Origin: Deinococcales bacterium
Lineage (GTDB): Bacteria > Deinococcota > Deinococci > Deinococcales > JAAFIG01
Direction of reading: 5' to 3'
Assembly (NCBI GenBank): GCA_043775825.1
Contig: JAYVRX010000047.1
Location: 7,027 to 71,026 of the forward strand
DNA: 64,000 nt
Shown: positions 37,639 to 53,855 of the stretch, one piece after another
Layout of the letters: each line of letters begins with the position of its first letter
How positions within the stretch are numbered: position 1 is the stretch's first letter
Notes under the pieces: model-generated
What the model saw: the letters and a program-made list of their open reading frames with translations, nothing else
Told to the model about the DNA's origin: nothing
Database searches by the model: none
Program-made: the position numbers and the translations under genes

Positions 37639-39078
37639 ATGACAGCCACACTCGAGTTTCAAGGGCAGACCAAAGCACTCATTGGATCAGGTTGGGTCAA
37701 TGCAGCCAGCACGTATCCACTCACCAGTCCATCCATGGGGCAAGTCATCGCGCATGTTGCAGATTGTGGAGTTCTTGAGGCTCGAGACGCGCTCGAGGCA
37801 ACCGTCAGCGCCTTTGAAACTTGGCGCAACACCACGGCGTATGAGCGGTCTGCGCTGATGAAGAAATGGTTCGCGCTGATGATTCGTGATGAGCAAGAAA
37901 TTGCACGTTTGATTGCGCTCGAGATGGGCAAACCTGTTTCCGAGGCGCTGGGCGAGGTACGTTACGCCGCCAGTTTTATCGAGTGGTACGCCGAGGAAGC
38001 CAAACGCGTGTACGGCGAGATCATTCCAAGTCAGTTTGGGCATAAGCGCTTGTTTGCGAGTAAGCACCCCGTTGGTCCTGTGTATGCGGTCACGCCCTGG
38101 AATTTTCCGGCGGCAATGCTGACCCGCAAAGTTGCCCCTGCACTCGCGGCGGGTTGTACCTTCGTGCTCAAACCCGCCGAGCAAAGCCCGTTAACCGCCT
38201 TAAAGCTTGCGGAACTCTGGCTCGAGGCTGGCGGGGCTGCGGGGGTCTTCCAGGTGCTGCCTTGCGCCGATCCAATCGCGGTGTCAAAAGTCTTTATGGA
38301 AGACTCGAGAATCCGCAAGATCACGTTCACGGGTTCGACTGAAGTGGGTCGGATTCTGACCAAGCAAAGTGCGGACACTTTAAAACGCGTTTCGATGGAA
38401 CTCGGCGGTCATGCGCCGTTTATTGTCTTCGATGATGCGGATATTGAACAAGCCGTCAAAGATGTGATCGCCTGCAAATTCCGTAACGCGGGACAAACCT
38501 GCGTTTGCACCAACCGTGTTTACGTCCAACGCGGCATTCTCGAGACGTTCACCGCAAAACTTGCTAGTGCAGTCTCGAGTTTAAAAGTTGGTGATTCGCT
38601 CGACGCCAGCACTCAAATTGGACCACTCGTGGACGCGCAAGGACTGGCGAAAGTCAAGGCGCACGTTGCGGATGCCCTATCACACGGTGCAACTGCTGTG
38701 ACTGGCGGCGCAGCACTCGAGGGGTTGTACTTCCAACCAACTGTGCTTGCTGGCGTAACCGAAGACATGCTGGTGATGCGCGAAGAAACTTTTGGACCCA
38801 TCGCACCCGTGATTGTCTTTGACACCGAAAGCGAGGTTTTACACGCCGCCAACAACACCCCATTTGGTCTGGCAGCTTACCTCTGGACTAAGGATTTATC
38901 TCGAGCCATGCGGGTTTCAGAAAAACTCGAGTATGGGATTATTGGACTGAACGATCCAATCCCAAGCACCGCCCAAGCGCCATTTGGTGGCATTAAGCAA
39001 AGCGGTTTTGGTCGTGAGGGTGGGCATTTTGGCATTGAAGAATATTTGTATGTGAAATACGTTTCAATGGTGATTTAA
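37639..39078 (+). CDS. NAD(P)-dependent aldehyde / succinate-semialdehyde dehydrogenase
   Basis: ALDH motifs FTGST, ELGG, catalytic GQTCVC, and EEYLYVKY at the end. SD ggagga before ATG 37639. Confidence 0.9.
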   Translation: MTATLEFQGQTKALIGSGWVNAASTYPLTSPSMGQVIAHVADCGVLEARDALEATVSAFETWRNTTAYERSALMKKWFALMIRDEQEIARLIALEMGKPVSEALGEVRYAASFIEWYAEEAKRVYGEIIPSQFGHKRLFASKHPVGPVYAVTPWNFPAAMLTRKVAPALAAGCTFVLKPAEQSPLTALKLAELWLEAGGAAGVFQVLPCADPIAVSKVFMEDSRIRKITFTGSTEVGRILTKQSADTLKRVSMELGGHAPFIVFDDADIEQAVKDVIACKFRNAGQTCVCTNRVYVQRGILETFTAKLASAVSSLKVGDSLDASTQIGPLVDAQGLAKVKAHVADALSHGATAVTGGAALEGLYFQPTVLAGVTEDMLVMREETFGPIAPVIVFDTESEVLHAANNTPFGLAAYLWTKDLSRAMRVSEKLEYGIIGLNDPIPSTAQAPFGGIKQSGFGREGGHFGIEEYLYVKYVSMVI

Positions 39079-39824
39079 GCTGTAGGGGATGGTCCCAGAC
39101 CATCCCCTATCAACTGTTCGCGCACGCCCACCACATGCCCAATTACCCATACGGCGGGGGCTTCAACACTGGTTTCACCGTTTGCCACCGCATCCAGGCT
39201 CGAGATCACCACGCGCTCCCTTGGGGTGCTGCCGCGTTCAATGAAGGCGCAAGGCTCGAGTTTATCCCGTCCGAGGGCAATCAAGTTTTGCGCGATATGG
39301 GCACGTTCGCCCACGCCCATCAAGACCACCAAGGTTTCCACGTGGGCGTAATGTCGCCACTCTGGGGCAGATTCTTCGGAGTGATGCCCTGTCACCACCG
39401 CGAAGCCTCGAGCGAGGTTGCGATACGTTAACGGTATTCCTGCCAAGGCGGGTACGGCAAGGCTCGAGCTGATGCCAGGAACGATCTGCACCGTCACACC
39501 GAGCGCGGTAAGATGCGCCCATTCTTCCGCGCCGCGACCAAACACGAACGGGTCGCCGCCTTTTAAGCGCACCACATTCTTGCCAGCCAGGGCGTAACGC
39601 TCGAGCAGCACCATGATTTCGGTTTGCACACTGTCTTGCTCGCCGTGATTTTTACCAACGTAAACGCGTTCGGCAGTGCTGGGGATCAACTCGAGAATCG
39701 CTGCCCCAACCAAACGGTCATAGAGCACCACGTTGGCATTCTCGAGGGCACGTAATGCCTTGATGGTCAGTAATTCTGGGTCGCCAGGTCCAGCGCCAAC
39801 AATAAAAACTTTGCCAGCGCTCAC
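39075..39824 (-). CDS. cobA: Uroporphyrinogen-III C-methyltransferase (SUMT)
   Basis: VFIVGAGPGDPELLTIKA...VVRLKGGDPFVFGRG. GTG 39824 overlaps the sirC-like stop (GTGA). Confidence 0.9.
   Translation of the reverse strand: MSAGKVFIVGAGPGDPELLTIKALRALENANVVLYDRLVGAAILELIPSTAERVYVGKNHGEQDSVQTEIMVLLERYALAGKNVVRLKGGDPFVFGRGAEEWAHLTALGVTVQIVPGISSSLAVPALAGIPLTYRNLARGFAVVTGHHSEESAPEWRHYAHVETLVVLMGVGERAHIAQNLIALGRDKLEPCAFIERGSTPRERVVISSLDAVANGETSVEAPAVWVIGHVVGVREQLIGDGLGPSPTA
39084..39108. repeat. GGGGATGGTC-N3-GACCATCCCC hairpin, copy 1
   Basis: aggggatggtc-cca-gaccatcccct lies at the junction of convergent genes. It supplies the last codons (GDGLGPSPTA) of the cobA ORF. Confidence 0.75.
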
Positions 39825-40534
39825 AGGTTCATCTCGAGTCCAGAAAAGACCGCGCAATTTTCGGGTGTACAGCCTTTGCACGGCGCTTTTTGGCAGGCTT
39901 CGCGTTGTGCCAGCACACCACGTTTGATCTCTAATCGAGCCGCCTCGGGTTGACCATCTTTCACCAGTTGCAGAGCTGGGGAATCCATCAGGTCGTACCA
40001 AAGTTTTTTGCGAAGATCAAAACTAGCAAACCCTGCTGTGATGCTCGAGCGCATCGAACGCAAAATTGCCAGAAATTCGCTGTATTCCTCGCCGTACTCG
40101 AGGTTGAGTTTTTGTTTGATGCGCACACCCAAAGCTGGCGCTGTGCCACTGGTCGAAATGCCAATAATCAGATCGCCACGGCGCACCACGCTGGGCAGAA
40201 TCAACGAACAACGCTCAGGGTCGTCCACGCTGTTGCACAAGACGCCTCGAGCCTCAGATTCGGCATAAATGGCGACATTATCGGCTTTGTCTTTGGTGTG
40301 CGACATGACCAACCAAACACCCGCCAGATCACCCGCCTCGAAACCGCGCCGTAACCAAGTGATTTTGCCGTCTTCCTCGAGCGCATCGAGTTCTGGGTGT
40401 TGGTACGGTGAAAGCAGGGTCAGGTTTGCGCCAGCCTCGAGTAAACCGCGCACTTTATGCTCGGTTTCCCAACCGCCACCGACGAACAAGACCTTGCGAT
40501 TTTTGAGGTTCAGCATGACAGGGTAATAAGACAT
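39821..40534 (-). CDS. sirC: Precorrin-2 dehydrogenase / sirohydrochlorin ferrochelatase (CysG N-terminal-type)
   Basis: YPVMLNLKNRKVLFVGGGWETEHKVRGLLEAGA Rossmann start. SD ggag before ATG 40534. Confidence 0.85.
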   Translation of the reverse strand: MSYYPVMLNLKNRKVLFVGGGWETEHKVRGLLEAGANLTLLSPYQHPELDALEEDGKITWLRRGFEAGDLAGVWLVMSHTKDKADNVAIYAESEARGVLCNSVDDPERCSLILPSVVRRGDLIIGISTSGTAPALGVRIKQKLNLEYGEEYSEFLAILRSMRSSITAGFASFDLRKKLWYDLMDSPALQLVKDGQPEAARLEIKRGVLAQREACQKAPCKGCTPENCAVFSGLEMNL

Positions 40535-40556
40535 GGTTTTCTCCAAAAATACGGGC

Positions 40557-40580
40557 GGGGATGGTCTAAGACCATCCCCT
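40557..40580. repeat. GGGGATGGTC-N3-GACCATCCCC hairpin, copy 2
   Basis: ggggatggtc-taa-gaccatcccct, intercistronic between sir and the sirC-like gene. Confidence 0.75.
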
Positions 40581-40599
40581 ACGAGAATATGATAATTTT

Positions 40600-42189
40600 T
40601 CAATCTGCGGCGTGGGCAAGCTCGAGCACAGTTGAAGGTTCAAACGCGCTCGAGCCGATACGCCCAGTGTACTCACGCCAGCTTTCAGAACCGACACGGT
40701 GCGCCAGAAAACCTGTAATCACTTTTTCGGAGTATTCCTCGAGTTGCGCTGCTGGAATCACACTTTTCAGTTTGTCCCCAAGGCGTGCCTCAGCATCCAA
40801 ACCACCCGAGAGATGAACTTGATAAACCTCTTCTTGCCCGCCGTTCGCGTCAGTGCGGTTCGCGCCCATAAAGCCCAGATCAGCCACTTGATAACGCGCA
40901 CAGGCGTTCGAGCAACCCGTTAAGTTGATGCTGAAAGCGTGTGGAAAAGTGTTGCCAAATTTTGCCTCGAGATACTCGACCAAATGCGTGGTTTTGGCTT
41001 TGGTTTCGGTCAGCGCCAACCTGCAAAATTCGATGCCGGTGCAGGCGATGGTACTGCCACGAAAAAAATTGTTGGCATACAAACCAATCTGCTCGAGTTC
41101 GGTAATGGCAGCCTCGAGTTTTTCCTGTGGAACATTCACCACGATCACGTTTTGGCGTGGGGTGTTGCGCAAATCGCCCGAACCGTAAGTTTCAGCAATT
41201 CGGGCAAGCTCGAGGGCGTGGGCTGTGGTGATGCGTCCGACGGTGGTGGCAAGCCCAATGGCGAACTGCCCGTTGTTTTGAGGAATGACTCCAAGGTGAT
41301 CGCTGGCGTTGCTGGGTGCTCGAGGGGCTTCGAGACCGTCCTCAAATTTGCGACCCAAGTATTCGCGCTCGACGACATCACGGAATTTTTCAGCTCCCCA
41401 ATCGGCAAGCAAAAACTTCAAGCGGGCTTTCTTGCGGCTGACCCGATAACCATGATCGCGGTAGGCGGCTGTGATGGCGCGTGAAACCTCGAGCACGTCT
41501 TCAGGCACTACAAACACGCCAAGGCGTTTGGCGAGGTGCGGGATTGCGCCCAGACCGCCACCGACCCAGACATCAAAACCGATACGCCCATCGGAGTGTT
41601 GATGCGCGATGAAGCCAATGTCGTTGATGTGATGACAGGCGCATTGTTCGGGGCAAGCGGTCACGGAAATCTTGAATTTGCGCGGCAGATCACCGAACTC
41701 GACATTGCCAGAAAAATGATTGGACAGCGTTTGAGACAATTCTCGGGTGTCCAGAATTTGTCGTCCATCCAGTCCCTCGAGCGGGCAGGCAATCACGTTG
41801 CGAACGGTGTCACCGCACGCGCCAACCGAATGCAAGCCGACTTTCTCGAGTCTGGCAAAAATTTCGGGGACATCTTCAATTTTTAACCAGTGAAATTGGA
41901 AACATTGCCTGTCGGTAATGTCCAGCACACCGCGACCAAAATCGTTGGCAATACCGACCACCACGCGCATGATTTCGCTGTTGTACGCGCCAGCCGTGAT
42001 CTTGATGCGCAGCATGAAAAAACCGTCTTCTTGTGGGCGTTGCGGGTACAAACCGTACCATTTGAACAAATCCAGATCGTCTGGGGCAATGCTCGAGAAA
42101 CCTGTTTTGGCATAATTGTAAATATCTGCCAGCACTTGATAGGGCGGCTTGACCGCCTTGATTTCCTCCACGTGGTTTGTCTTTGCCAT
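40600..42189 (-). CDS. sir: Sulfite reductase hemoprotein (ferredoxin-type nitrite/sulfite reductase family)
   Basis: 529 aa with siroheme/4Fe-4S Cys motifs (TACPEQCA, TGCSNACA). Confidence 0.9.
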   Translation of the reverse strand: MAKTNHVEEIKAVKPPYQVLADIYNYAKTGFSSIAPDDLDLFKWYGLYPQRPQEDGFFMLRIKITAGAYNSEIMRVVVGIANDFGRGVLDITDRQCFQFHWLKIEDVPEIFARLEKVGLHSVGACGDTVRNVIACPLEGLDGRQILDTRELSQTLSNHFSGNVEFGDLPRKFKISVTACPEQCACHHINDIGFIAHQHSDGRIGFDVWVGGGLGAIPHLAKRLGVFVVPEDVLEVSRAITAAYRDHGYRVSRKKARLKFLLADWGAEKFRDVVEREYLGRKFEDGLEAPRAPSNASDHLGVIPQNNGQFAIGLATTVGRITTAHALELARIAETYGSGDLRNTPRQNVIVVNVPQEKLEAAITELEQIGLYANNFFRGSTIACTGIEFCRLALTETKAKTTHLVEYLEAKFGNTFPHAFSINLTGCSNACARYQVADLGFMGANRTDANGGQEEVYQVHLSGGLDAEARLGDKLKSVIPAAQLEEYSEKVITGFLAHRVGSESWREYTGRIGSSAFEPSTVLELAHAAD

Positions 42190-42228
42190 TTCAGGGTCCT
42201 CTCGAGAAAACGGGTTTTAATCCCGTTG

Positions 42229-42972
42229 CTAGCTGCTCAGCACCGACCTGAGGATCAATACTGTTCCAATAATTGACAGCACTGTACCAAGAAGTGGACG
42301 GGCAATGTTCTCTGAGAGTTTAGGCGCATAACCGCTGGCAAGCCAAGTGCTGGGAAGTGCCCCGAGCAGCAACCAACCAACAGTGCCAAAATCAACTGCT
42401 GAACGCTGCGCATGACCTGCGGCAGCCACCAAAGACAACAAAACGCCGTGGGCAACGTCTGTGCCTGCGAGCCTCGAGACTTTGAGATGCGGCATGATAA
42501 ACGTCAGTGCCAGCGCGAGCATTGCGCCGCTGCCAATGCTGGTTAAACCAACGATAGCACCAACGGCTGCACCAACCAGTGGCAACGGAATTGGAATGGC
42601 TTTGACCACTTTGGGCGGGTACTTCCAACGCCATAAAATGGCAATGCCCGTAAAGATCAATGCCACCGCCAGCAAACGTAGCAAGAACGTGACTTTGAGG
42701 TGCATTAAACTGGTGGCATAACCTGCGGGAAGGCTGCCAATTGCCAGCAGTGCAACCGTTTTCCAATCAATCGTGCCGCTTAAATGATGCCGCCATGACG
42801 CGCCCATTTTGGTCACGCTGGCGGCAATCAAATCCGTGCCGATCAAAACAGGTGTTGGCAGTCCGAGCAGCAACAGGGCTGGGGTCAGCAAACTGCCGCC
42901 ACCAAGTCCTGTCGTACCGATCAAAAAACCTGTGACCGCGCCAAGCGCCACCAGAACGGGCGGCTCGATCAT
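42229..42972 (-). CDS. TauE/SafE-family sulfite exporter-like membrane protein
   Basis: [24 protein letters not shown] motif, about 7-8 TM segments. Confidence 0.85.
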
Positions 42973-44138
42973 GTCCGTGCCTCGAGATACGCGGCACGTA
43001 AGACTTCAGCCACTTCTTTGCGGGTGAATTCGACGGGCAGTTCCTCGCCTGCGGTCAGTTTCTCGCGGACTTTTGTGCCTGACAAAACCAGATGATGACT
43101 GCTGTCGTGCGGGCAGGTGCGGCTCGAGACGAGCGAACCGCAAGTGCGGCAGTAAAACGTGTGCTCGAATTTGATAATTTCGATGCCGAGTTCTTCTTTG
43201 CTGTAGGTGTTAAAAATTTCTTGCGCGTCGTATGTGCCGTAATACGTGCCAACGCCAGCGTGGTCGCGTCCGACAATAAAGTGGGTGCAACCGTAATTGC
43301 GACGACTGATCGCGTGCAAAATTGCTTCTCGAGGTCCGGCGTAACGCATCGCGGCGGGATAAACGCCAAACAAAACGCGTGAGGCTGGGTAGTAATTCTC
43401 GAGCAAGACTTCATAGGCTTTGACTCGGGTGGCGGCGGGAACATCGTCGGATTTGGTGCTGCCGACCAGCGGATTTAAGAACAATCCGTCAATCGTCTCG
43501 AGCGCGACCTTGTGCAAATACTCGTGCGCACGGTGAATCGGGTTGCGGGTTTGAAAAGCCACCACGGTCTTCCAGTCTTTTTTGGCAAATTGCGCCCGGG
43601 TCTCGAGCGGGGTGTAATGATGCTCGGGGTAATCACCACGTGAAACCTCGAACAAGGTCACGTCACCCGCCAAGTTCACCTGTCCCTGCTCGAGCAACGC
43701 AGCCACGCCAGGATGCTTCTCGTCGCTGGTGCGGTACACCTCCAACGCCTCTTTTTGCTTGTCGGGCGTGTACTGCTCACTCACCTCGAGCAAACCAACG
43801 GGCGTATTGCGGTACGACAACAAAACCTTGCCCGTAAAATTCTTTGCCGCCTCGCTCGAGACACCCAAGGTGATCGGAATGCTCCACGGTAACCCGTTCG
43901 CCAAGCGCAAATTCTCAACGATGCTGGCATGGTCTTTAGAACCCGCAAAACCCGTCAGCGGCGAGTACACGCCCGTCGCAATCAACTCGAGATCGGCGTA
44001 ATTACTGTCAGACAACTCGAGGGTTGGGAGGTGCGCAAAATCTTTGGGGTCAAGGTTTTGAACGCGGTTGATGAGTTTGCCGCCGAGCGGCGTGATGAGG
44101 CTGTTCTCGAGGTTTGTGGGTTCTAAGGTCAAGGTCAT
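42969..44138 (-). CDS. sat: Sulfate adenylyltransferase (ATP sulfurylase)
   Basis: [11 protein letters not shown] and GRDHAG motifs, with a C-terminal Zn-ribbon-like CRTCG...CPHD. Confidence 0.93.
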
Positions 44139-44173
44139 GGGTTTCCTTTTTGGTTGGGATTGAATGGTTGCTT

Positions 44174-44221
44174 CCCTCTCATCCCCAACCCTTCTCTCCT
44201 AGGAGAGAAGGGAGTTATATT
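44174..44221 (-). repeat. REP-like hairpin element, copy C
   Basis: ccctctcatccccaacccttctctcctaggagagaagggagttatatt, intercistronic between cysH and sat. Confidence 0.8.
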
Positions 44222-44265
44222 TTTTTGTGGTGTGGCTGCAAAATTGGTTTTTTGTTGGTTATACA

Positions 44266-44922
44266 CTAAATCGCGTTTTGACCTACCCACAAACCGCATT
44301 CGGTTTTACCTTGTCCCGCCCATCGTCCCGCTCGAGCGTCTTCGCCTGGGCGCACGGCGCGGGTGCATGGGGCACAACCGATGCTTAAAAAACCATCAAA
44401 GTACAGTGGGTTGACGGGAAGTTCGTGCTCGAAGGCGTATTTCTCGAGATCGGATCGAGTCCAGTTGGCAAGTGGGTTAAGTTTGACTCGAGCACCGCCG
44501 TTTTCGATCAATGGAATGTCGGCGCGGGTGCTGGCTTGGTCGCGGCTGCGGGCGTTCAGAACGGCGCTGGGGTTGATTTGGGCAAGGTAATTTTGCAAGG
44601 GCGCGACTTTGCGTGCGGCACAGCAGGCATCGGTGTCGGTCAAATACAAATCGTCGAGCGGTAAGCCGGCGTGCAAGGTCACAAACTCGAGTTGCAGGTA
44701 TCTGGCGATCAGGGCATCTCGAGTCTCGAGTGTCTCGATGAAATGATAATCGGTGTCCACAAAAATCACTTTTCCCGTGTAACCAGCTTTGGCAGCGAAA
44801 TCAATCAAAACAATCCCATTCAGATTGAACGCGCTTGGCATGACGACATCGGGGTAAGTTTTGATCGCCCAAGCAATAAACTCGAGCGGACTGGTTTTTG
44901 GTGGCTCTAGGACGTAGCTCAT
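44266..44922 (-). CDS. cysH: Adenylyl-/phosphoadenylyl-sulfate reductase with Fe-S Cys motifs (APS-reductase type)
   Basis: [18 protein letters not shown] and C-terminal ECGLW motifs. Confidence 0.9.
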
Positions 44923-45455
44923 GCGCTGACTGGGACTCGAATTCCGAGGCTACTAAGCTTTTCGAGTACACGATCTAGGCTTTGCTCGAGGCTTTCAAGG
45001 TCGGTGTGAAGGTGAAGTTCTGGATTTTCTGGGGCTTCGTAAGGGTCGCTTACGCCAGTGAAGTGCTGAATCTCACCTGCCAGGGCTTTTTTGTACAAGC
45101 CTTTGACATCGCGGCTCGAGACGGTCTCTAAGGGCGCGTCAACAAAAATTTCTAAACTTTTATCGGCTTGATCAAGGACTTCGCGGCGGGTGTCACGGTA
45201 CGGGCTGATGGCGCTGACCAGGGTCACAACACCGTGTTTTGCCAGTAGATTTGCGACAAATCCAATACGGCGGATGTTCGTGTCGCGGTCTTCTCTCGAG
45301 AATCCCAAGCCTTTAGAAAGCGTTTCGCGCACAGCATCACCGTCAAGAATTTGGACTTTATGCCCAGCCTCTAAAAGCACTGGTTCGAGTGCTTTAACGA
45401 TGGTTGTTTTGCCTGCGCCCGATAATCCTGTAAACCAGATAACTGCTCCACTCAT
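44919..45455 (-). CDS. cysC: Adenylylsulfate (APS) kinase
   Basis: [14 protein letters not shown]-loop, LDGDAVR, FVDAPLE. ATGA-type overlap with cysH. Confidence 0.93.
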
Positions 45456-45619
45456 ACGTTTACCTCAAGAAAAAGTTGTTTGCGGGTTGAATTCGGACGT
45501 TGCTTAGGCATTCGACATTGGGGACACATCAAAATTCCTTTCAGAGCAGGAGAACGCTGAAGTCCTCTGATCGTAGTGGTTATGCGCTTAATTTTTGTGA
45601 AACCTAAAATCGCCGGAGG

Positions 45620-45682
45620 TCAACAACAAGGACAACAGCGTGTGACTGTAGGCATTCGTGTGTTGTGATGAACCTCGAGCAT
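45620..45682 (-). CDS. Candidate Cys-rich leader peptide (20 aa) of the sulfate-assimilation operon
   Basis: Minus strand: aagagggatact ATG CTC GAG GTT CAT CAC AAC ACA CGA ATG CCT ACA GTC ACA CGC TGT TGT CCT TGT TGT TGA = MLEVHHNTRMPTVTRCCPCC*. SD-like GAGGG lies 6 nt upstream. The ORF ends 164 nt upstream of the cysC ATG. Confidence 0.5.
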   Translation of the reverse strand: MLEVHHNTRMPTVTRCCPCC

Positions 45683-45894
45683 AGTATCCCTCTTAAAAAT
45701 AATATAGTTTACAAAACTTATAAACTTACAACTTTTGTATAGCTTATACCTTTGTTCTGGCAAAGTTTCGTTTGCTGGAATACAAGACCGCACGAATGAG
45801 AAATTAAAGACTATTTATCTCGAGCAGCACCATAAAAAACGCTGAGAAGAACCCTCAACCTTTTATTTTCAAGCGCTTGCTGTGCTTACCACCC

Positions 45895-45929
45895 TCAAAA
45901 AAATAACCCTGCGAATTGCGTCGCAGGGT
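45895..45929 (-). terminator. Terminator of the S33 peptidase gene
   Basis: Minus strand: accctgcga-cgcaat-tcgcagggt followed by TATTTTTTT. Confidence 0.8.
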
Positions 45930-45949
45930 AAAAAGTTGTTCAAGGCAAT

Positions 45950-47656
45950 TTAGAAACGGGGGAACATTTGCGCGGGTTCGATCTTTGGCATTGGGAAAGG
46001 ATCGGCGCTGCGTGCTCGAGTGGTGTTCACAAAGAACGAAATCGGCTTATCGGCACAAGATGTGTTGATTTCGGCTGTCGGATTCTCGAAGAATGCCGCC
46101 AAAATGCCTTGGGCACATTCACCTTCGTCGCCAGGTTCGGCGGATGGATAAGCTGAAGCGCCGTGTGCACCTGCTGGATAAAAGACAAATTCTTTATTGA
46201 ACAACCTAGAATCCACAGCTTCGGCATAACTTGGTGGTGTGATTGGATCAAAGTAACCAACCTGTAAAAGCGTAGGAATATCACTAATCACTGGGAACTG
46301 GGCGAAGAAATCGGCGGGAACACCCCATTGGCGGCAGGTTTTTTGAATTGCCAACGGACTTGCGCCCAACAGACGACGGTAGGCTGGTGTTACGCGATCA
46401 AGGAAGCGATTGATCTGAAATTCGCTGGTGAATTGTGCGGTATCACTACAGACCACCGACAGGTACATTCCATCCGAGTTGCTGCCATCACCACCCACAA
46501 ACAATTCCGAAAGAATGTTGGCAAAGGCTCTGTAATTGCCCGCTTTGGTGACACTGACGTAAATGGGCACAAACGGCAAGAAAGAGGGGCTGTACAACAA
46601 TTGGTTCAGTACCCTAAAGAACAAGTCACCAGTCACTCGAGCGGTTATAAATTCGGTGGCTGATACTGGAATTTGAATCTCGGGTTGCTTGGTGTTGAGT
46701 TCCACGATCAGATCATCAAAAGTCTGTGACAGATTTGGATAGGTCGCGTTACAACTGGCATCTGCGGCACAAGCCTTAAAAATTTCAATTCGGCTGCGAT
46801 CAAACGCCAAGGGTGCTCGAGCCGACCAGTCCTGGCTGGGATCAATGATCGCCTCGAGATTGACGGCACGAACCACACGGCGGTAATCGCGCATGACAAT
46901 CTGTGCCAAGTAAGTGCCGTAAGATGCGCCCCAAACGTTGAGCTTCTTGTAACCCAAGGCTTTGCGGATATCGTTGACATCGCCTGCGCTCTCACGGGTA
47001 TTGAAGGCTTTTAATTGATAGCCTTTGGCAACTAAGGCATCGCGGCATTTAAGGTTTTCTGCCACGCCTTGATTGACAATTTCATCCAAGATTGGATCGG
47101 AACTTTTTGGTGTTGCCGAAAATGAAAGTGCCGATTGCAGACGGGCTTGAGCGCCTTGGGTGCTTGGGCATTCCAAACGGGGTTGTGAATTGCCAACGCC
47201 ACGTTGGTCAAAAATAATCAAATCGTTTTGACCCGCAAATGTTTTAAGGTTCTGACCTTGCAAACCAAGAATAGCTCCCTGGACTGTGCCACCAGGACCA
47301 CCCTGCAAGTAAATATTGGCAGCAGAATTTTCGATACCAGCCAAATTCTTAACAAGCAAAACCGCCACCTTAATGGTTTTGGAACTGCGTGGATAGCGAC
47401 TTTCACGAACCACCACATAACCACAACGCGTGTTTGTGGCATTCAGATTGCTTGGAAGTCGGAATGGACAAGTTTCAGCCGCTTCAAAGCGGGGCAATTG
47501 TTGACCATCAGAGGAACGTTCCATCAGGTTTTCATCTTGTTGAGGCGGGGCTGTAGGCGTTGCGACTTGAGGATCGGTTGTGGCGCTTGGGCTGTTGTTA
47601 CAGCTTATAAACCCCAGGGCGAGCGTAAGAATAAACAAGGGCAGCAATCGTTTCAT
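45950..47656 (-). CDS. Secreted alpha/beta-hydrolase, tripeptidyl-aminopeptidase (S33, TAP-like) lipoprotein
   Basis: Lipobox GFISC, GGPGG oxyanion region, GASYGT nucleophile elbow, TAP-like C-terminus. CTCGAG-poor (4 sites in 1.7 kb). Confidence 0.8.
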   Translation of the reverse strand: MKRLLPLFILTLALGFISCNNSPSATTDPQVATPTAPPQQDENLMERSSDGQQLPRFEAAETCPFRLPSNLNATNTRCGYVVVRESRYPRSSKTIKVAVLLVKNLAGIENSAANIYLQGGPGGTVQGAILGLQGQNLKTFAGQNDLIIFDQRGVGNSQPRLECPSTQGAQARLQSALSFSATPKSSDPILDEIVNQGVAENLKCRDALVAKGYQLKAFNTRESAGDVNDIRKALGYKKLNVWGASYGTYLAQIVMRDYRRVVRAVNLEAIIDPSQDWSARAPLAFDRSRIEIFKACAADASCNATYPNLSQTFDDLIVELNTKQPEIQIPVSATEFITARVTGDLFFRVLNQLLYSPSFLPFVPIYVSVTKAGNYRAFANILSELFVGGDGSNSDGMYLSVVCSDTAQFTSEFQINRFLDRVTPAYRRLLGASPLAIQKTCRQWGVPADFFAQFPVISDIPTLLQVGYFDPITPPSYAEAVDSRLFNKEFVFYPAGAHGASAYPSAEPGDEGECAQGILAAFFENPTAEINTSCADKPISFFVNTTRARSADPFPMPKIEPAQMFPRF

Positions 47657-48252: not shown

Positions 48253-49071
48253 TTAAGCCGCCTCTTTGACCGCCAAATCCACCGTCAAAATCCTGACCAG
48301 ACGTTCACGCAAAGCAGTATATTCGAGCGTTTTGGTCATCTCGGTACGGTTGCGCGGGCGTTCAAATGGAACATCAATGACATCAAAAATCCTGGCTTTA
48401 GGACCATTGGTCATAATCACGATACGGTCAGACAAATACATTGCCTCGTCAATATCGTGCGTCACCATCACCACAGTCTCGGCGTTGGACTCGCCGTACA
48501 ACATTTTGTTCAACTGCTCCTGCAAACCGCCACGGGTTAAGGCATCGAGCGCCCCAAACGGTTCGTCCAACAGCATCACCCTGGGATTAATCGCAAACGC
48601 CCTGGCAATCGCCACGCGCTGCTTCATGCCGCCAGAAATTTCGTGCGGGCGCTTGTGACGGTGCTGCCACAAACCAACCGCCCTCAAATACTCCTCGCTG
48701 CGTCCAACTTGCATCAAATTATCGATCTCGGGACACGATGCCTCTACCGCCTCGAGCACGTTTTCCTCGACGGTTAACCACGGCAGCAACGAATAATTTT
48801 GAAACACCACCGCACGGTCAGGACCTGGACCTTTAATCTCCTGCCCCTCGAGCTTGACAAAACCCGTGCTGGGTTTCTCAAGTCCGGCGATCATAGAAAG
48901 CAGTGTGCTTTTACCACAACCCGAATGTCCGATCAAACTGACAAATTCACCCGCCGCAATCTCGAGATCAACCGCCTCGAGCGCAGTGTACCCGCCGTTT
49001 TTACCTGGAAAGTGCTTGGAAAGATTTTTGATTTCAATGCCAGTGTTTGCCGTCTCGAGTTTTAAAGTCAT
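48253..49071 (-). CDS. nrtD: Nitrate/sulfonate/bicarbonate-type ABC transporter ATPase (NrtD-like)
   Basis: GHSGCGKST Walker A, LSGGMKQRV signature, LLLDEPF Walker B. SD ggagga before ATG 49071. Confidence 0.88.
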   Translation of the reverse strand: MTLKLETANTGIEIKNLSKHFPGKNGGYTALEAVDLEIAAGEFVSLIGHSGCGKSTLLSMIAGLEKPSTGFVKLEGQEIKGPGPDRAVVFQNYSLLPWLTVEENVLEAVEASCPEIDNLMQVGRSEEYLRAVGLWQHRHKRPHEISGGMKQRVAIARAFAINPRVMLLDEPFGALDALTRGGLQEQLNKMLYGESNAETVVMVTHDIDEAMYLSDRIVIMTNGPKARIFDVIDVPFERPRNRTEMTKTLEYTALRERLVRILTVDLAVKEAA

Positions 49072-49163
49072 GAAATCGTATCCTCCGATTGACGTAACGT
49101 GCGCTGTGCGCATCATAACCGCGTAAAAAACGGTGCGCACGGCGCACCCTACCAGTTTGTGCT

Positions 49164-50003
49164 TTATCCGCCGTAAGAAACTTTTCTCGAGAGCCAATCG
49201 AAACCCTTGTCGAACAGCAAGCCCGTCAAACCAATCAGGGCAATGGCGCTGATGACTTTTTCGTAACTTAAGGCGTTGTAAGAATCCCAAGCGAAGAATC
49301 CAATGCCGCTCGCGCCAGACAGCATTTCGGCGGCAACAATCACCATCCAGGCAATGCCGAGGCTGACACGCAAGCCAGTCACAATGTGCGGCAATGCAAA
49401 TGGTAGCAGCACGCGGCGCACGTAACGATCACTGGAGAAATTAAAGACTTTGGCAACGTTTTTAAAATCTTTCGGCACGGCTGCCACGCCAAAATAGGTG
49501 TTGATCACGGTGGGCCACAAGCTGGTAATGAAAATCACGAAGACCAGAGCGTTGGGCGCACTTTTGATTGCCACAAGCGCCAGCGGATACCAGGCGAGCG
49601 GCGAAACGGGGCGCAAGACTTGCACAATCGGATTCACAAGCCTGTGAATAAATTGCACTGAACCCATCAAAATGCCGAGTGGCACGGCAACAACCGCCCC
49701 CAGAAACCAACCCAAACCGACGCGCTGCAAACTCGAGAGCAACAACAATCCCACACCTTGATCATTTGGTCCGCCGTAATGAAATGGGTTTTTAATCAAA
49801 TCCCAGAACACACCAACGGTTGCCTGCGGCGAGGGCAAATCAGTGCCAACAAATACCCGCACGATCAACCAAACCGCCACAATCAAGCTTAAACTACCAA
49901 GCGTAAACGCCAAGGTCGTCAGGCTCGAGCGCAACCAAGCAGGTACGACTGGGGTTTTTGGAGTCTCGAGATTCGAGTTTGAACGACCTATTCCTCGGTT
50001 CAT
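49164..50003 (-). CDS. nrtB: Nitrate ABC transporter permease (NrtB-like)
   Basis: BPD-type permease with an EAA-like loop. SD aagggga before ATG 50003. Confidence 0.85.
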   Translation of the reverse strand: MNRGIGRSNSNLETPKTPVVPAWLRSSLTTLAFTLGSLSLIVAVWLIVRVFVGTDLPSPQATVGVFWDLIKNPFHYGGPNDQGVGLLLLSSLQRVGLGWFLGAVVAVPLGILMGSVQFIHRLVNPIVQVLRPVSPLAWYPLALVAIKSAPNALVFVIFITSLWPTVINTYFGVAAVPKDFKNVAKVFNFSSDRYVRRVLLPFALPHIVTGLRVSLGIAWMVIVAAEMLSGASGIGFFAWDSYNALSYEKVISAIALIGLTGLLFDKGFDWLSRKVSYGG

Positions 50004-50013
50004 GATTCTCCCC

Positions 50014-51252
50014 TTATTTCGCGGCTTCTTTGAGGTACGCGGCTGGATTGTTCGGATCAAATTTGGATTTGTCCAAGGTCATCGTCCACGGTTTCATGTC
50101 GTCGGCTGGCAGGTTTAAACCAAGCTCTTTGGCAACCTCGCGGTAAAGGTCTTGCATAATTAGTTTGTCGGCAATCGCTTTGGCATCCGCTGGGAATGGT
50201 TTGTAACCAAAACGGGCGTACTGCGCCAAGAACCAAATACCGTGCGCTAAGCGCGGCATCGAAACTTTGCCGTCGCGCGAGAACACCATGCGGTCATCAA
50301 GAAATTGTTTTGTCCCAAGCCCGTTGCCAAAATCGTAACGTCCCTCGAGCCTGGCACCGATCACGTCAGGGCTGGCATTGATGTACTGTGCCGCGCCAAT
50401 CGTGGTGGCAGCTTTGCGAATATTGCCGACTTCATCGAGCCAAGCGGATGCCTCGAGCACAGCTTTCATAATGGCTTTGACTTCATCTTTTTGGGCGCTG
50501 AAAGCTTTGTTCAAAACCAGCGCTTTTTCTGGGTGATGCTTCCAGATTTCCTGGCTGGTGATGGCGGTAAAACCAATTTTTTGCTGCACCGCAACGCCGT
50601 TCCAAGGTTCACCCACCGAATAGCCGATCATGTTGCCAACTTTCATATTGGCAACCATCTGCGGTGGTGGAATCGTGATGATGCGTTGTTTGCCCGTCAC
50701 GCTGGCATCAACGCCCGCATGGTCAAGGTAATTGCGCAACCACATGTCGTGCGTGCCACCAGGGAAGGTCATGGCAAACGTTGTGTCTTTGCCGTCCGCC
50801 AGGAGTTTCTCGAGCGCCCCTTTGAGTTTGCTGGGGTCACGTCCGACGTTGCCAAGAGCATTTGCCAGCGTAATGCCTTGACCGTTGTTGTTTAAAATCA
50901 TGGCAATCGGCATTTCCTTGCCGGCTTGTCCACCAATGCCCGAGTAAACACTAAACGGCATTCCGAACAAACAGTGAGCACCTTGAATATCACCGTTCAA
51001 AACACCGTCACGCAGCGCAGCCCATGAGGCTTGCTTCACGACTTCGACATCAACGCCGTACTTTTTAAACAAACCCAATTCTTTTGCCATGATAATGCTG
51101 GCGGAATCGGTCAGGGCAATAAAACCAAGCTTGATCGTATTGGCGGCTTTGGACTGAATCCAAATGTTGGGCAGGGCGAAAGTTACTGCCGTTCCAGCCG
51201 CGATCTTCAAAAAATCACGACGGGAAACTCGAGACGAAGCTTTTTTGTTCAT
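50014..51252 (-). CDS. nrtA: Nitrate ABC transporter substrate-binding protein (NrtA/CmpA-like) with Tat signal
   Basis: SRRDFLKIAAGTAV twin-arginine signal, NrtA-like body. SD ggagga before ATG 51252. Confidence 0.88.
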   Translation of the reverse strand: MNKKASSRVSRRDFLKIAAGTAVTFALPNIWIQSKAANTIKLGFIALTDSASIIMAKELGLFKKYGVDVEVVKQASWAALRDGVLNGDIQGAHCLFGMPFSVYSGIGGQAGKEMPIAMILNNNGQGITLANALGNVGRDPSKLKGALEKLLADGKDTTFAMTFPGGTHDMWLRNYLDHAGVDASVTGKQRIITIPPPQMVANMKVGNMIGYSVGEPWNGVAVQQKIGFTAITSQEIWKHHPEKALVLNKAFSAQKDEVKAIMKAVLEASAWLDEVGNIRKAATTIGAAQYINASPDVIGARLEGRYDFGNGLGTKQFLDDRMVFSRDGKVSMPRLAHGIWFLAQYARFGYKPFPADAKAIADKLIMQDLYREVAKELGLNLPADDMKPWTMTLDKSKFDPNNPAAYLKEAAK

Positions 51253-51270
51253 ACAATCCTCCAAAGTTGT

Positions 51271-51291
51271 GGGACGGTTTGAAACCATCCC
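51271..51291 (-). repeat. GGGATGGT-type intercistronic hairpin, copy 3 (diverged)
   Basis: Minus strand: gggatggttt-c-aaaccgtccc, immediately after the nasA stop. It is related to the copies at 39084 and 40557. Confidence 0.55.
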
Positions 51292-53400
51292 TTAGGAAAC
51301 AGCGATTTTTACGGCACAAACCTTAAATTCTGGCATTCTCGAGGTGGGATCGAGCGCGGCTGAGGTCAAACGGTTGATGGCTTCTGCGCCTGCAAAATGA
51401 AACGAAACGAACACGGTATCGGCTCGCATTTTGTCGTCAAATAAAACCTTAAAGTCACCCACGCCGCGCCTTGTCTCGAGCTGAACGGCTGCACCATTTG
51501 AAAGGTTGTGTTGCGCCGCGAGGCTCGGGTGCATTTGCGCCAGCGCATGCGGGCTTTTGGCGTTTAAGCTGCTGCGCCGCGTTTGCGTGCCGCTCTGGTA
51601 ATGGTTGACATCGCGCCCAGTGGTTAAAAAAAGCGGATACTCGAGGCTTGGCATTTCCGCGCCCTCACGGTATTTGACGACAGCCAAATGTGCCCGTCCG
51701 TCTTGGTGGGCAAAAAATTTGGTAAACGGTTCTGGTGTGCCAGGATGATTCGGGTGAGGGCAGGGCCAAAAAACGCCGCGTGTACCAATTTTCTGGTAGG
51801 TCAAACCCGAGTAATCGGCTGGCGCACCTCGAGTCGCAGTGGCAAGATCATCGAAAATTTCTTCGACATTTTGGTACAAAAATTTGTCACCATGCCCGAG
51901 CCTAGCGCCAATCTCACAGAGGATTTTCCAGTCTTCCCGCGCCTCGCCTGGGGTGTCCTGGACTTTTCGGCGACGCAAGACGCGACCCTCTAAGTTGGTC
52001 ATTGTGCCGTCCGTTTCAAGCCACATTGAGCCTGGCAGCACAACTTCGGCAAGCGCGGCGGTTTCGGATAAAAAGAAATCCACGACCACCAGATGCTCGA
52101 GTTTCTGTAAGCGCTCCTCGAGTTTGCTGGCATCGGGGGCGCTGACCACGACATTTGAGCCAATCACAAACAAACCTTTAACGCTGCCTCCGCAAGCCTC
52201 GAGCAATTCTTGGGCGCTTAAACCCTTGCCTGGCAGGTCGTCCTCGTCAATGCCCCAGTGCGCGGCAAAATAACCCCTGGCGAGCGGGTCTTGGATACTT
52301 CTGTAGCCTGGGAGCTGATCGGCTTTCTGTCCGTGCTCACGTCCGCCTTGACCATTGCCTTGACCTGTCAGGGGCGCGTAAACGCCGCCCAAACTGAGTG
52401 CCAGGTTGATGATTGCCTTGATCGTGTCCACACCCTTGGATTGTTGCTCTGGACCGCGCCCAGAGAGAATCACCAGACCGCCAAATTTTGCATCGGGCGC
52501 ACTGACGGCTCGAGCCATCAGCCGCGCCGTGTCACGAATCATTTTGGCAGTTAATCCGCACTTGTCGCTCGCCCATTCTGGAGTGCAATCCGTTACGGAC
52601 TTCATGACTTTTTCCCAGCCCACCGTGCGCTTCTCGAGGAACGCCCAACGTTCGCGGGCTTCGTCAATAATCACGTGCAACATTGCCAGCGCCAGTGCCA
52701 AATCGCCGCCAGGTTTAACTGGCAAATAATGCGTTGCCAGACTCGAGGTGCGGGTTGGGCGCGGGTCAATTACAATGATTGGCGCACCCGCTTTTCTGGC
52801 TTTTAGAATGAACTGCGAAACGGGCGGCAGGGTTTCGGCAAGGTTCGCGCCCCACAGCACAATGCAGTCTTTTTGGGTCAGTTTCTCGAGCGGAAACGGC
52901 AAGCCGCGATCCATGCCGTAAACGGCTCGCATCGCTCCTGCGGCGCTGCTCATGCAAAAACGTCCGTTGTAATCGATGTTGGCGGTCTGCATGGCAACCC
53001 GAGCAAATTTTGATAGCAGGTAAACGTGTTCGTTGCTGAGACTGCCGCCGCCAAACACGCCGTAAGCATTCGAGCCGTGTGCCGCCCGAACCGATTTCAT
53101 GCCGTCTACAACTTTGGTTAAAGCCTCTTCCCAAGTTGCTGGCTCGAGGCTTCCGTTTTTGCGCACGAGCGGCGTTAATAGGCGCTCTGGATGGTTGACC
53201 AACTCGAGCGCGTTCAAACCTTTTTTGCAAACCGAACCGCCCGCCACGGGGCATTCCTTGGTAGGTTTCATGGCGGTGGCTGCGCCCGTTTGGACGGCAA
53301 TGTCAAAACTGCACTGCACCGCACAGTAAGGGCAGGTGGTGCGGGTGGTTAGGGCAGGTTGCGCCGTCACTGGAGAAACCTCGAGTAAAGCGGCACTCAC
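51292..53400 (-). CDS. nasA: Assimilatory nitrate reductase, molybdopterin catalytic subunit
   Basis: N-terminal CPYCAVQC...C 4Fe-4S motif and MopB-family body, 702 aa. GTG start. Confidence 0.92.
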   Translation of the reverse strand: MSAALLEVSPVTAQPALTTRTTCPYCAVQCSFDIAVQTGAATAMKPTKECPVAGGSVCKKGLNALELVNHPERLLTPLVRKNGSLEPATWEEALTKVVDGMKSVRAAHGSNAYGVFGGGSLSNEHVYLLSKFARVAMQTANIDYNGRFCMSSAAGAMRAVYGMDRGLPFPLEKLTQKDCIVLWGANLAETLPPVSQFILKARKAGAPIIVIDPRPTRTSSLATHYLPVKPGGDLALALAMLHVIIDEARERWAFLEKRTVGWEKVMKSVTDCTPEWASDKCGLTAKMIRDTARLMARAVSAPDAKFGGLVILSGRGPEQQSKGVDTIKAIINLALSLGGVYAPLTGQGNGQGGREHGQKADQLPGYRSIQDPLARGYFAAHWGIDEDDLPGKGLSAQELLEACGGSVKGLFVIGSNVVVSAPDASKLEERLQKLEHLVVVDFFLSETAALAEVVLPGSMWLETDGTMTNLEGRVLRRRKVQDTPGEAREDWKILCEIGARLGHGDKFLYQNVEEIFDDLATATRGAPADYSGLTYQKIGTRGVFWPCPHPNHPGTPEPFTKFFAHQDGRAHLAVVKYREGAEMPSLEYPLFLTTGRDVNHYQSGTQTRRSSLNAKSPHALAQMHPSLAAQHNLSNGAAVQLETRRGVGDFKVLFDDKMRADTVFVSFHFAGAEAINRLTSAALDPTSRMPEFKVCAVKIAVS

Positions 53401-53444
53401 ACTTGACCTTGTTTGGGTTTTGGCGTGTGCAAATTCGAGGTCAT
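53397..53444 (-). CDS. Possible 15-codon upstream ORF translationally coupled to nasA
   Basis: acaaggaaaatcaacc ATG ACC TCG AAT TTG CAC ACG CCA AAA CCC AAA CAA GGT CAA GTG TGA. The stop overlaps the nasA GTG start (GTGTGA). Confidence 0.3.
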   Translation of the reverse strand: MTSNLHTPKPKQGQV

Positions 53445-53519
53445 GGTTGATTTTCCTTGTCTGAAACGGTATTTATCAGAATTTTGTGATTTGGTGCACA
53501 GACAACTTTCTCGAGCGTC

Positions 53520-53548
53520 AATCTAAAACAACAATTGCAAAGTGTCAA
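53520..53548 (-). promoter_or_regulatory. Candidate sigma-70-type promoter of nasA operon
   Basis: Minus strand: TTGACA - 17 nt - TAGATT. Confidence 0.45.
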
Positions 53549-53813: not shown

Positions 53814-53855
53814 AAACTCAACGTCACGATTGACGCGTGACAGGAGGTATACAAA

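Follow-up and report, generated by a model that had tools for sequence, protein, structure and literature searches.

The DNA analysed here is a stretch of 64,000 nucleotides (nt) of contig JAYVRX010000047.1 from a Deinococcales bacterium, referred to below as the window. Its minus strand carries a sulfate-assimilation operon, cysC-cysH-sat-tauE-sir-sirC-cobA, whose products are identified by Pfam as an APS kinase, a PAPS reductase, an ATP sulfurylase, TauE, a sulfite reductase, a SirC-like protein and a uroporphyrin methylase. An earlier note, made from the letters of the window, had given the operon this content and had drawn attention to a cysteine-rich open reading frame (ORF) of 20 codons, preceded by a Shine-Dalgarno sequence (SD) and located 164 nt upstream of cysC on the same strand, as a candidate cysteine-sensing attenuator. 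The Pfam matches bear out the first point, and the ORF is indeed present in the sequence and in the list of ORFs. This upstream ORF (uORF1) consists of the codons MLEVHHNTRMPTVTRCCPCC and ends in a block of cysteine codons directly in front of its stop codon. It is proposed that uORF1 is a cysteine-responsive cis-regulator of the operon by one output or another, a reading to which a probability of about three in four is given on the sequence evidence. The elements on which it centres are the following.

45688-45694, minus strand: SD of uORF1, AAGAGGG, 5 nt upstream of the uORF1 ATG
45620-45682, minus strand: uORF1, with its ATG at 45682-45680, 20 sense codons and the stop codon TGA at 45622-45620
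45623-45637, minus strand: cysteine block of uORF1, TGT TGT CCT TGT TGT, codons 16-20, immediately before the stop
39075-45466, minus strand: operon cysC-cysH-sat-tauE-sir-sirC-cobA, with the cysC SD GAGG at 45466-45463 and the cysC ATG at 45455

The spacer between the stop codon of uORF1 and cysC accordingly covers 45619-45456. Codons 16, 17, 19 and 20 of uORF1 are TGT without exception, and cysteine thus accounts for 4 of its 20 codons as against 1.1% of the residues in the long ORFs of the window; the genome as a whole encodes cysteine by TGT in 38% and by TGC in 62% of cases. The block is the presumed stall site of the ribosome under conditions where Cys-tRNA(Cys) is scarce. A cluster of cysteine codons is not in itself improbable, since 100 Markov-1 randomisations of the 64 kb produced 1.55 ORFs per window with at least four cysteines in six codons, or 0.48 per randomised window when only ORFs of up to 40 codons are counted. 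The real window contains two (n = 2), uORF1 and an antisense ORF at 20898-20999 which lies within an ORF of 806 amino acids, and apart from this antisense ORF no other copy of the conserved leader motifs or of a cysteine-cluster ORF was found in the window. The chance expectation of a uORF1-like ORF in the correct orientation within this leader of about 230 nt is in the order of 1e-3. As a cysteine-cluster ORF somewhere in the window is not unexpected, the real significance of uORF1 derives from its conservation in relatives.

The cysC gene places the window among uncultured Deinococcales metagenome-assembled genomes, whose cysC is 94-97% identical, followed by Calidithermus, Thermaceae and Deinococcus at 69-76%; a metagenome scan with cysC returned no close relatives, the best match being 74% identical. 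Close relatives were drawn from a genome scan, a protein search and contig look-ups, and those with a cysC that is 92-97% identical, here called the window clade, provide nine distinct leader sequences. All nine keep the SD, ATG and stop codon of uORF1, its cysteine codons and its length of 20 codons (19 in L161). uORF1 is found in L001-L003 and L161-L169, where it encodes the following peptides.

L001: MLEINHNTRMSTATRCCPCC
L002: MLEQNHNTRMSTVTGCCSCC
L003: MLEITHNSRMSTATRCCACC
L162-L166: MLEITHNTRMPTATRCCPCC, with one cysteine encoded by TGC
L168: MLEKHHNTRMLTATRCCPCC
L169: MLEINHNTRMPTTQRCCPCC
L161: ...RCCPC-stop
L167: ...RCCPCR-stop

Mean pairwise identity amounts to 83-87% in uORF1 as against 46% in the 5' untranslated region (5'UTR) and the linker. 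Cys16, Cys17 and Cys19 are invariant and Cys20 is present in eight of the nine leaders, whereas codons 4, 5, 11, 13 and 18 change freely and non-synonymously, the variable columns being distributed 7/6/10 over the three codon positions. The SD is purine-rich (AAGGA, AAAGGA or AAGGAG) and is found at the same spacing in 9/9 leaders despite the low identity of the surrounding 5'UTR. This fixed spacing would favour a leadered rather than a leaderless start of uORF1. Neutral sites are saturated in this comparison, as is apparent from the flanks and from the complete sequence turnover of a hairpin further downstream (H5, see below), and uORF1 is under selection. That this selection acts on the cysteine codons is suggested by the synonymous TGT to TGC changes in L162 and L165 and by the free middle codon 18 of the block, which is CCT, TCT, GCT, CCG or CCA (P, S or A). 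The earlier note had allowed that the ORF might be fortuitous, and had named a lack of conservation of the ORF or its cysteine codons in relatives as one ground for refuting its reading; the relatives compared here show the opposite. Judged by the conservation of the frame and its cysteine codons in nine leaders it is not, and because frame, length and cysteine codons are kept while other codons vary, it is the codons that appear to matter rather than the peptide.

A cysteine-rich micropeptide with a metal- or redox-active CCxCC motif, co-transcribed with the operon by chance and not serving as a codon-level sensor, would also account for the C-terminal CCxCC that is kept and for the invariant non-cysteine positions M1, L2, E3, H6, N7, R9, M10 and T12. 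This is the least probable of the alternatives considered. Non-synonymous changes are many and the variable columns show no strong excess at the third codon position, while the invariant non-cysteine codons fall on sequences that pair in the RNA (CUCGAG, ACAACA) or on the motif CGAAUG. One relative ends in CCPC and another in CCPCR, and four leader peptides were without any match in Pfam or NCBIfam. In L167 a segment of about 140 nt with the terminal inverted repeats GTACCTCCT...AGGAGGTAC is inserted into a second leader ORF, uORF2, at about positions 1300-1470; this may be a miniature mobile element that landed in the leader, or the leader copy may be decaying.

More distant relatives have leaders that cannot be aligned with that of the window, yet three types of these carry cysteine-rich uORFs directly upstream of cysC. 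The conservation of a small ORF and its cysteine codons upstream of cys operons, which the earlier note had proposed to look for, thus extends beyond the window clade. In L170 and L171 the uORFs are MTQQRLTRRMPSSPRMPGCGCCCR (MTQQR..PGCGCCCR) and ...GCGRCCR, with cysteine codons that abut the stop. L176, located on a contig of 5 Mb, contains the uORF MRPLPLFPIRTCCRMSTLEARC, which ends in ..TCCRMSTLEARC (TCCRM...C-stop) and is followed, just upstream of the cysC SD, by a canonical terminator GCAGCGCagatgGCGCTGC-T7 (GCAGCGC-agatg-GCGCTGC-T7). This terminator indicates that at least one relative regulates the operon through the level of its transcript. The third type, in L179 and L180, has an Rrf2-family gene, an S-adenosylmethionine riboswitch of class I (SAM-I) and then the uORF MFEFSVLHQCRCCRMPMAF... 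(..CRCCRMP..), in that order. The riboswitch of L179 (RF00162, Rfam 68 bits) occupies 1127-1263 and is directly followed by the uORF of 38 codons at 1278-1394, not by cysC itself, which in L179 is 73% identical to that of the window. The 3' strand of the riboswitch helix P1 (GAUAAG) abuts the SD of this Cys-Arg-Cys-Cys-Arg-Met uORF, which argues that translation of the uORF matters for the operon. A SAM riboswitch of the translational type that seemingly gates the uORF and not cysC would be sensible if translation of the uORF protects the transcript, and L179 could in this way combine SAM and cysteine codons as tandem inputs. The peptides of these leader types are unrelated to each other and alike only in their cysteine richness, which further speaks against a functional micropeptide. 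In other Deinococcales cysC is located inside an operon or has a short leader without a uORF. The recurrence of cysteine-rich uORFs in unrelated leaders is the strongest argument that the cysteine codons are the functional element.

The region upstream of uORF1 contains three further features.

45841-45929, minus strand: two terminator-like hairpins with T-runs (stems 45929-45906 and 45859-45841), which close the upstream hydrolase gene (45950-47656)
45760-45790, minus strand: near-invariant non-coding block GTCTTGTATTCCAGCAAACGAAACTTTG, the second such block upstream of uORF1
45706-45739, minus strand: promoter/operator block, composed of a 30-bp imperfect palindrome and a -10-like TAAACT (45711-45706)

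The end of the hydrolase gene at 45950 and the two terminator-like hairpins behind it, which delimit the promoter region of the cys leader, place the leader in a transcription unit of its own; L001 has an equivalent terminator. The palindrome TACAAAAGTTGTAA-GT-TTATAAGTTTTGTA at 45739-45710 has arms of 14 nt that are 86% complementary, and the promoter/operator block as a whole is nearly invariant in four leaders. No match to the sigma-70 consensus promoter was found in this region of the window, where TTGTAA and TAAACT are spaced by 14 nt. Related ACAAA..TTTGTAA motifs occur upstream of cys operons in L006, L007, L081 and L179, and the copy in L179 (at about 1010-1050) adjoins the gene for the Rrf2-family (CymR-like) regulator. 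The palindrome is probably a candidate operator for a transcription factor of the cys regulon, and if it is an operator, the operon would be under dual control. The conserved palindromic block just upstream, the adjacent Rrf2-family gene in L179 and the chance frequency of cysteine-cluster ORFs (about 1.5 per window) would also be expected if the frame of uORF1 were incidental, the leader being a DNA operator or promoter or an untranslated RNA, and a transcription factor bound at the palindrome were alone responsible for the control by cysteine. This explanation is improbable given that the SD spacing is fixed within a poorly conserved 5'UTR, that start, stop and length of uORF1 are kept, that TGT to TGC changes preserve cysteine and that cysteine-rich uORFs occur in three leader types which cannot be aligned. 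Nor does the leader match an Rfam family: across the whole window only one tRNA was detected at the gathering threshold, and only sub-threshold chance matches were obtained in 45300-46100 with E-values of up to 10, a SAM-I match being confined to the relative L179.

The anatomy of the RNA between uORF1 and cysC was derived from an alignment of the nine leaders, an RNAalifold consensus and pair counts, and comprises the following elements.

45612-45680, minus strand: long imperfect hairpin around uORF1, with CUCGAG, ACAACA and ACAGU on the 5' side and GCUGU, UGUUGU of the cysteine block and the post-stop region on the 3' side
45570-45619, minus strand: spacer from the uORF1 stop to H5, poorly conserved (46% identity), C-rich, G-poor and single-stranded, a candidate Rho loading region
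45547-45569, minus strand: hairpin H5 (CAGAGGAC...GUUCUcCUG), kept in position and not in sequence
45536-45542, minus strand: SD of uORF2, GAAAGGA, followed by the invariant GGAAUUUUGAUG (78% identity)
45452-45529, minus strand: uORF2, 25 residues and TGA, with an in-frame TTG at 45532 and a stop codon that overlaps the cysC start (AUGA)
45509-45517, minus strand: Cys-Arg-Met core TGTCGAATG in uORF2 (98% identity)
45488-45496, minus strand: conserved block CCGAATTCA in uORF2 (88% identity, as CCGAAUUCA)

Within the hairpin around uORF1 the CUCGAG of codons 2-3 pairs with a post-stop CUCGAG, ACAACA with the UGUUGU of the last cysteine codons and ACAGC with GCUGU, and in several relatives, including L001 and L169, the SD of uORF1 is paired as well. 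The hairpin has a folding energy of -21.6 kcal/mol in the window, and its z-scores are -2.6 in L001 and -2.75 in L169. Codons 4-15 of uORF1, with 13-17 C and 4-5 G in the nine leaders, are C-rich and G-poor, and so is the segment from the stop codon to H5, whose C/G ratio is 1.3-3.5 in 9/9 leaders. H5 is the only helix with covariation, both partners being substituted in five of its six pairs; its versions include CAGAG.., GGGCG/CGCCC, UGUGAAG/CUUCACA, AGGCGCG/CGCGCCU and GAGCG/CGCUC. It ends 9-13 nt upstream of the invariant UUUUGAUG, which contains a U4 tract and forms the start site of uORF2, and is followed by an SD and not by a U tract. On the opposite strand of L001 (858-877 on the minus strand, GGGCGTAGAATCTCGCGCCC-TTTTTGG) H5 together with the A-run in front of it scores as an intrinsic terminator; a role of H5 as an antisense terminator was rejected, since neither the window nor L161 or L169 has this A-run, and the resemblance is probably coincidental.

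The earlier note had likened the locus to the classical layout of trpL and hisL but had not been able to fold convincing, mutually exclusive hairpins in the spacer. Folding of the nine leaders under the constraint of a ribosome footprint leads to the same outcome, and with neither an intrinsic terminator nor mutually exclusive helices in the window clade the classical layout does not apply. No intrinsic terminator is present in the window at 45456-45690 or on the sense strand of L001 downstream of uORF1, the only terminator-like site on the latter strand being a weak hairpin of 5 bp within uORF1. Folding of the whole leader is no better than that of shuffled sequences (z +1.26 and +0.26). According to base-pair probabilities averaged over the nine leaders, a footprint on the cysteine tract of uORF1 neither induces an alternative helix that is conserved nor alters the accessibility of the uORF2 or cysC start site in a consistent manner, and a footprint on the cysteine codon of uORF2 has inconsistent effects on the start regions. 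Duplexes of the cysteine tract with the start regions of cysC or uORF2 score no better than those with shuffled targets (z -0.6 to +2.9). The pairing of GUUGUU in the cysteine codons with a downstream AACAAC, to which the earlier note had pointed, likewise equals the shuffled controls, although AACAAC itself is present at 45480-45475 and a similar word recurs in seven of the nine leaders; the U-run that it had described at 45462-45470 exists but is located a few nucleotides away, at 45474-45467.

The second leader ORF, uORF2, had been missed by the first inspection of the window. Its frame is open in 9/9 leaders over 24-29 codons, and its gap runs are all multiples of three, while gaps in the spacer measure 1, 5 or 11 nt. 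The openness of the frame is not significant by itself (P of about 0.2 per sequence). The stop codon of uORF2 overlaps the cysC ATG in seven of the nine leaders and lies within the cysC SD in L001 and L002; this AUGA overlap comes partly free because cysC starts with Met-Ser (AUG AGY). The 98%-conserved core of uORF2, GAUGUCGAAUGC, encodes Arg/Gln-Cys-Arg-Met and is separated by variable sequence from the block CCGAAUUCA. The core is able to pair with the start region of uORF2, UUUGAUGU (45533-45526), in a helix of 8 bp without covariation (helix 6), and CCGAATTCA with the cysC start AUGAGUGG (45455-45448) or with the sequence between SD and AUG of uORF2 (helix 7). The 9-mer of the core also occurs in the leader uORFs of L176 (1398-1406) and of L179 and L180 (1314-1322 in L179). 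An in-frame CGA-ATG, usually as TGY-CGA-ATG, is found without exception in the leader uORFs of all clades studied, including L170 and L171, and in the window at 45509-45517 and 45653-45658; CGA is not a rare codon here and makes up 16% of arginine codons. The direct repeat of 10 nt reported in the earlier note, CGAATGCCTA, is exact at 45658-45649 and 45514-45505 and is explained by this Arg-Met word, which is common to uORF1 and uORF2. A tandem duplication as the origin of the two uORFs was rejected by inspection, as only the word CGAATGCC is common to both and the order of elements differs.

In public annotations the cysC calls P0001, P0002 and P0004-P0006 (L161-L168) are 199-200 amino acids long instead of 178, their first codon being the ATG within the GATGTCGAATGC core; in some genomes this ATG shares the frame of cysC. 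As that frame is closed in the window (MSNA-stop) and the ATG is out of frame in L001, the calls are mis-annotations of the start site. Leaders of this kind are invisible to gene callers, and cysC starts are mis-called in the public metagenome annotations of the clade.

The properties of uORF2 invite the possibility that the same cysteine sensor acts through a purely translational relay of two stages. The start region of uORF2, UUUGAUGU, would pair with AUGUCGAA and CCGAAUUCA with either AUGAGYGG of cysC or GGAAUUU of the uORF2 start; a stall on uORF1, or on the single conserved cysteine codon of uORF2, would shift these pairings, and ribosomes that terminate at AUGA would open cysC or re-initiate there, in a manner resembling ermC or Ms5788A. 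Such a relay would be in keeping with the invariant SD-AUG region of uORF2, with its gaps of multiples of three and with its overlap with cysC, and it alone explains why conservation in the leader is highest in the four pairable blocks (78-98% identity). Helices 6 and 7 are predicted by RNAalifold, the hairpin at the uORF2 start of the window has an energy of -6.9 kcal/mol (z -1.85), and linked changes in L161 (GGGAUUUU together with GAAAUC) keep, by inspection, a 6-bp pairing of the GAAUUU:GAAUUC type in a shifted register. Translational attenuation by cysteine codons also has an experimental precedent (10.1101/834739). However, helices 6 and 7 never vary and hence provide no covariation either way, and neither of the two ribosome footprints opens either start region consistently in the nine leaders. 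Around the cysC start of the window there is less structure than in shuffled sequences (z +2.0), which argues against masking of this start site, and cysC has a good SD of its own; the cysteine tract is no more complementary to the start regions than to shuffles. The AUGA overlap is, as noted, partly a gift of the cysC start, and none of the other leader types has an equivalent of the second uORF. The relay is regarded as less likely than not, and as second in probability among the outputs considered.

A more far-reaching variant, rather unlikely on present evidence, is that the leader is a terminator-less cysteine sensor of two uORFs built on an ancient UGY-CGA-AUG (Cys-Arg-Met) module. The core of this module would be common to at least three unalignable cys leaders of the Deinococcota, one of them behind a SAM-I riboswitch with a combined input of methionine/SAM and cysteine; in uORF2 it would pair with its own start codon, and a newer uORF1 would add a second, more sensitive stage. 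If this were true, the core would represent a specific context for stalling or recognition that is not known from any attenuator, and the clade would use a ribosome relay from uORF1 through uORF2 to cysC in place of terminator or anti-SD helices.

The preferred reading is that translation of uORF1 would inform the sulfate-assimilation operon of how much charged tRNA(Cys) is available. With ample cysteine, the ribosome would read Cys-Cys-Pro-Cys-Cys, terminate and depart, and the uORF1 region would refold and leave the C-rich spacer naked. When cysteine is scarce, the ribosome would park on the cysteine codons, the leader would remain unfolded or occupied, and expression of the operon would rise. 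Because these codons abut the stop, a parked ribosome would also cover the first 10-13 nt past it. The output is tentatively taken to be a tna-like, Rho-type conditional premature termination, which is favoured although its chances are put somewhat below even. The C-rich, G-poor RNA that separates the uORF1 stop from H5 would serve as the loading site of Rho, which would then overtake RNA polymerase at the site formed by H5 and UUUU or close to it unless the parked ribosome interferes; after escape of the polymerase, uORF2 would restore the coupling of translation with transcription as far as cysC. Premature termination in the spacer was chosen because the clade is devoid of an intrinsic terminator, and the tna type in particular is favoured by the stop-abutting cysteine codons, the C-rich unstructured spacer, the geometry of H5 as a pause hairpin before U4, the strong start of uORF2 after H5, the open cysC start, the real terminator in one relative and the apparent gating of the uORF, in place of cysC, by the riboswitch of L179. 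The analysis establishes uORF1, its conservation with retained cysteine codons, the lack of a terminator, the covarying H5 and the conserved uORF2, whereas translation and stalling on uORF1, the sign of the regulation and a part for Rho are inferred. The tnaC leader of the Escherichia coli tryptophanase operon is the prototype of such Rho-dependent attenuation, in which free tryptophan, acting through the nascent peptide, stalls the ribosome at the stop codon so that a catabolic operon is induced. The present leader resembles tnaC in the proposed holding of the ribosome at the end of the ORF, in the long spacer without an intrinsic terminator and in the proposed interference with Rho loading near the stop codon. 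It differs in that the pause would be caused by hungry codons, in that the operon is biosynthetic and in that its signature of a Rho utilisation (rut) site is weak.

Several observations weigh against this scheme. The rut-like character of the whole 164-nt spacer of the window is weak, with a C/G ratio of 1.35 that is reached by 12% of random windows, and a parked ribosome would cover only about 12 nt past the stop and not the bulk of the C-rich linker. The reading of H5 as a pause hairpin rests on its geometry alone, which the spacing between SD and AUG of uORF2 would impose anyway. The hairpin around uORF1 is not unusually stable in the window (z -0.5), and its outer helix (helix 1) may be a by-product of the genome-wide hyper-abundance of CTCGAG. 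The scheme also leaves unexplained the two blocks of uORF2 in which the leader is best conserved, GATGTCGAATGC and CCGAATTCA. In L176, where a terminator is present, constrained folding yields no antiterminator. Finally, the one cysteine uORF that has been experimentally proven acts at the translational level (10.1101/834739).

Alternatively, the same sensor could act on the stability of the mRNA, with a parked ribosome that blocks decay from the 5' end (of the RNase J type) or shields the A/C/U-rich linker from cleavage by an endonuclease, so that the mRNA would be longer-lived when cysteine is scarce. Precedents for this are the ermC and ermA leaders in Bacillus and Staphylococcus, and RNase J is present in Deinococcus-Thermus. 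Such an output needs no alternative helices, which matches their absence, and uORF1 would probably be located some 10-20 nt from the 5' end if TAAACT is the -10 element; the G-free A/C/U linker between two hairpins also resembles an endonuclease site. However, the hairpin around uORF1 near the 5' end should itself be protective when cysteine is replete, and uORF2 and H5 would find no explanation, which makes this output very improbable.

Cysteine was, to our knowledge, long without a leader-peptide attenuator, with candidates predicted only in Actinobacteria (2005) and a single mycobacterial locus proven in 2020. If a second phylum, and a distant one, also has a conserved cysteine-codon leader, the sensing of cysteine by ribosomes would have evolved repeatedly, and with a different build: here it is led by an SD, has neither an anti-SD duplex nor a terminator and includes a second, coupled uORF, to which relatives add either a terminator or a riboswitch for SAM. 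Such a leader would also offer a compact natural system for studying how a hungry-codon stall is converted into gene expression without the classical helices. In the literature no report was found of a cysteine leader before a sulfate-assimilation operon in the Deinococcota.

The kind of ribosome-based cysteine sensor that uORF1 most likely represents has been described mainly from mycobacteria, and among the closest parallels are the mycobacterial polycysteine small ORFs Ms5788A and Rv2334A, for which SD unmasking was shown experimentally (Canestrari et al. 2020, 10.1101/834739; Mol Microbiol 114:93). Like uORF1 these are short, unannotated ORFs that lead a cysteine or sulfur operon and end in consecutive cysteine codons before the stop, with partly conserved non-cysteine residues and an untranslated spacer of about 100-160 nt without an intrinsic terminator. 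Unlike uORF1 with its conserved SD, the mycobacterial ORFs are leaderless, and in Ms5788A a very stable duplex joins the cysteine tract to the SD of the gene that follows, a complementarity that does not exist in the window clade. The second conserved uORF that overlaps the start of the first gene is a further difference, and between Deinococcota and Actinomycetota there is no sequence homology of the small ORFs. Actinobacterial cysteine leader peptides, with cysteine runs near the stop codon and no conserved terminator hairpin, have been proposed to act by a Rho-dependent, tna-like mechanism (Seliverstov et al. 2005, PMC1262725). uORF1 shares the stop-abutting cysteine codons with these and with tnaC-type leaders (PMC1262725), but the actinobacterial leaders are computational predictions from another phylum and have no second uORF or covarying hairpin.

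With trpL, hisL, pheL and thrL uORF1 has in common that a short, SD-led ORF rich in codons for the end product precedes a biosynthetic operon. It differs in having no pair of terminator and antiterminator in the window clade and in cysteine codons which abut the stop instead of preceding it by 10-15 nt; the distant relative L176 does possess a canonical terminator after its cysteine uORF. In the same phylum, leaderless leader peptides have been predicted in Deinococcus deserti, including a peptide of 10 amino acids with two cysteines upstream of cysS (de Groot et al. 2014, PMC4007540). These are short peptides rich in the cognate residue that are proposed to control genes for amino-acid biosynthesis or tRNA synthetases. 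They are leaderless and assigned to transcription attenuation, and the cysteine example in the main text is cysS, whereas the leader of the window is SD-led, has CCxCC at the stop and contains a second uORF (PMC4007540). A likeness to the translational attenuation of ermC, in the summary given elsewhere (10.1101/834739), is that a stalled ribosome could re-pair segments which mask a downstream start. In contrast to ermC, the stall signal here would be a shortage of tRNA(Cys) and not an antibiotic, and the helices that would be needed are invariant and without support from thermodynamic modelling. The element would thus work like the known cysteine-codon leaders but without the structures that define the trpL or Ms5788A types, and adds to them uORF2, the covarying H5 and the Cys-Arg-Met core.

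CTCGAG, the word that forms the outer helix around uORF1, is the commonest hexamer of the window, with 437 copies in 64 kb, or 27.6 times the expectation from composition (for example at 45674-45679 and 45819-45824). It occurs in all three codon phases (239/76/82) at a median spacing of 113 nt, and its excess is visibly common to L001-L003, L005, L008 and L176, while the palindromes AGGCCT, AGTACT, AGATCT and ACTAGT have zero copies in the window. The excess looks like a genome-wide signature at the DNA level, for which restriction-modification, repair or uptake may be responsible.

Upstream of the hydrolase gene, at 48253-56378, the window contains a cluster of the nitrate-assimilation type, with genes for an NMT1_2-type binding protein, a permease, an ATPase and a NasA-like molybdopterin oxidoreductase and a divergent gene for a NirB-like nitrite/sulfite reductase, so that genes for the assimilation of sulfur and nitrogen are neighbours at this locus.

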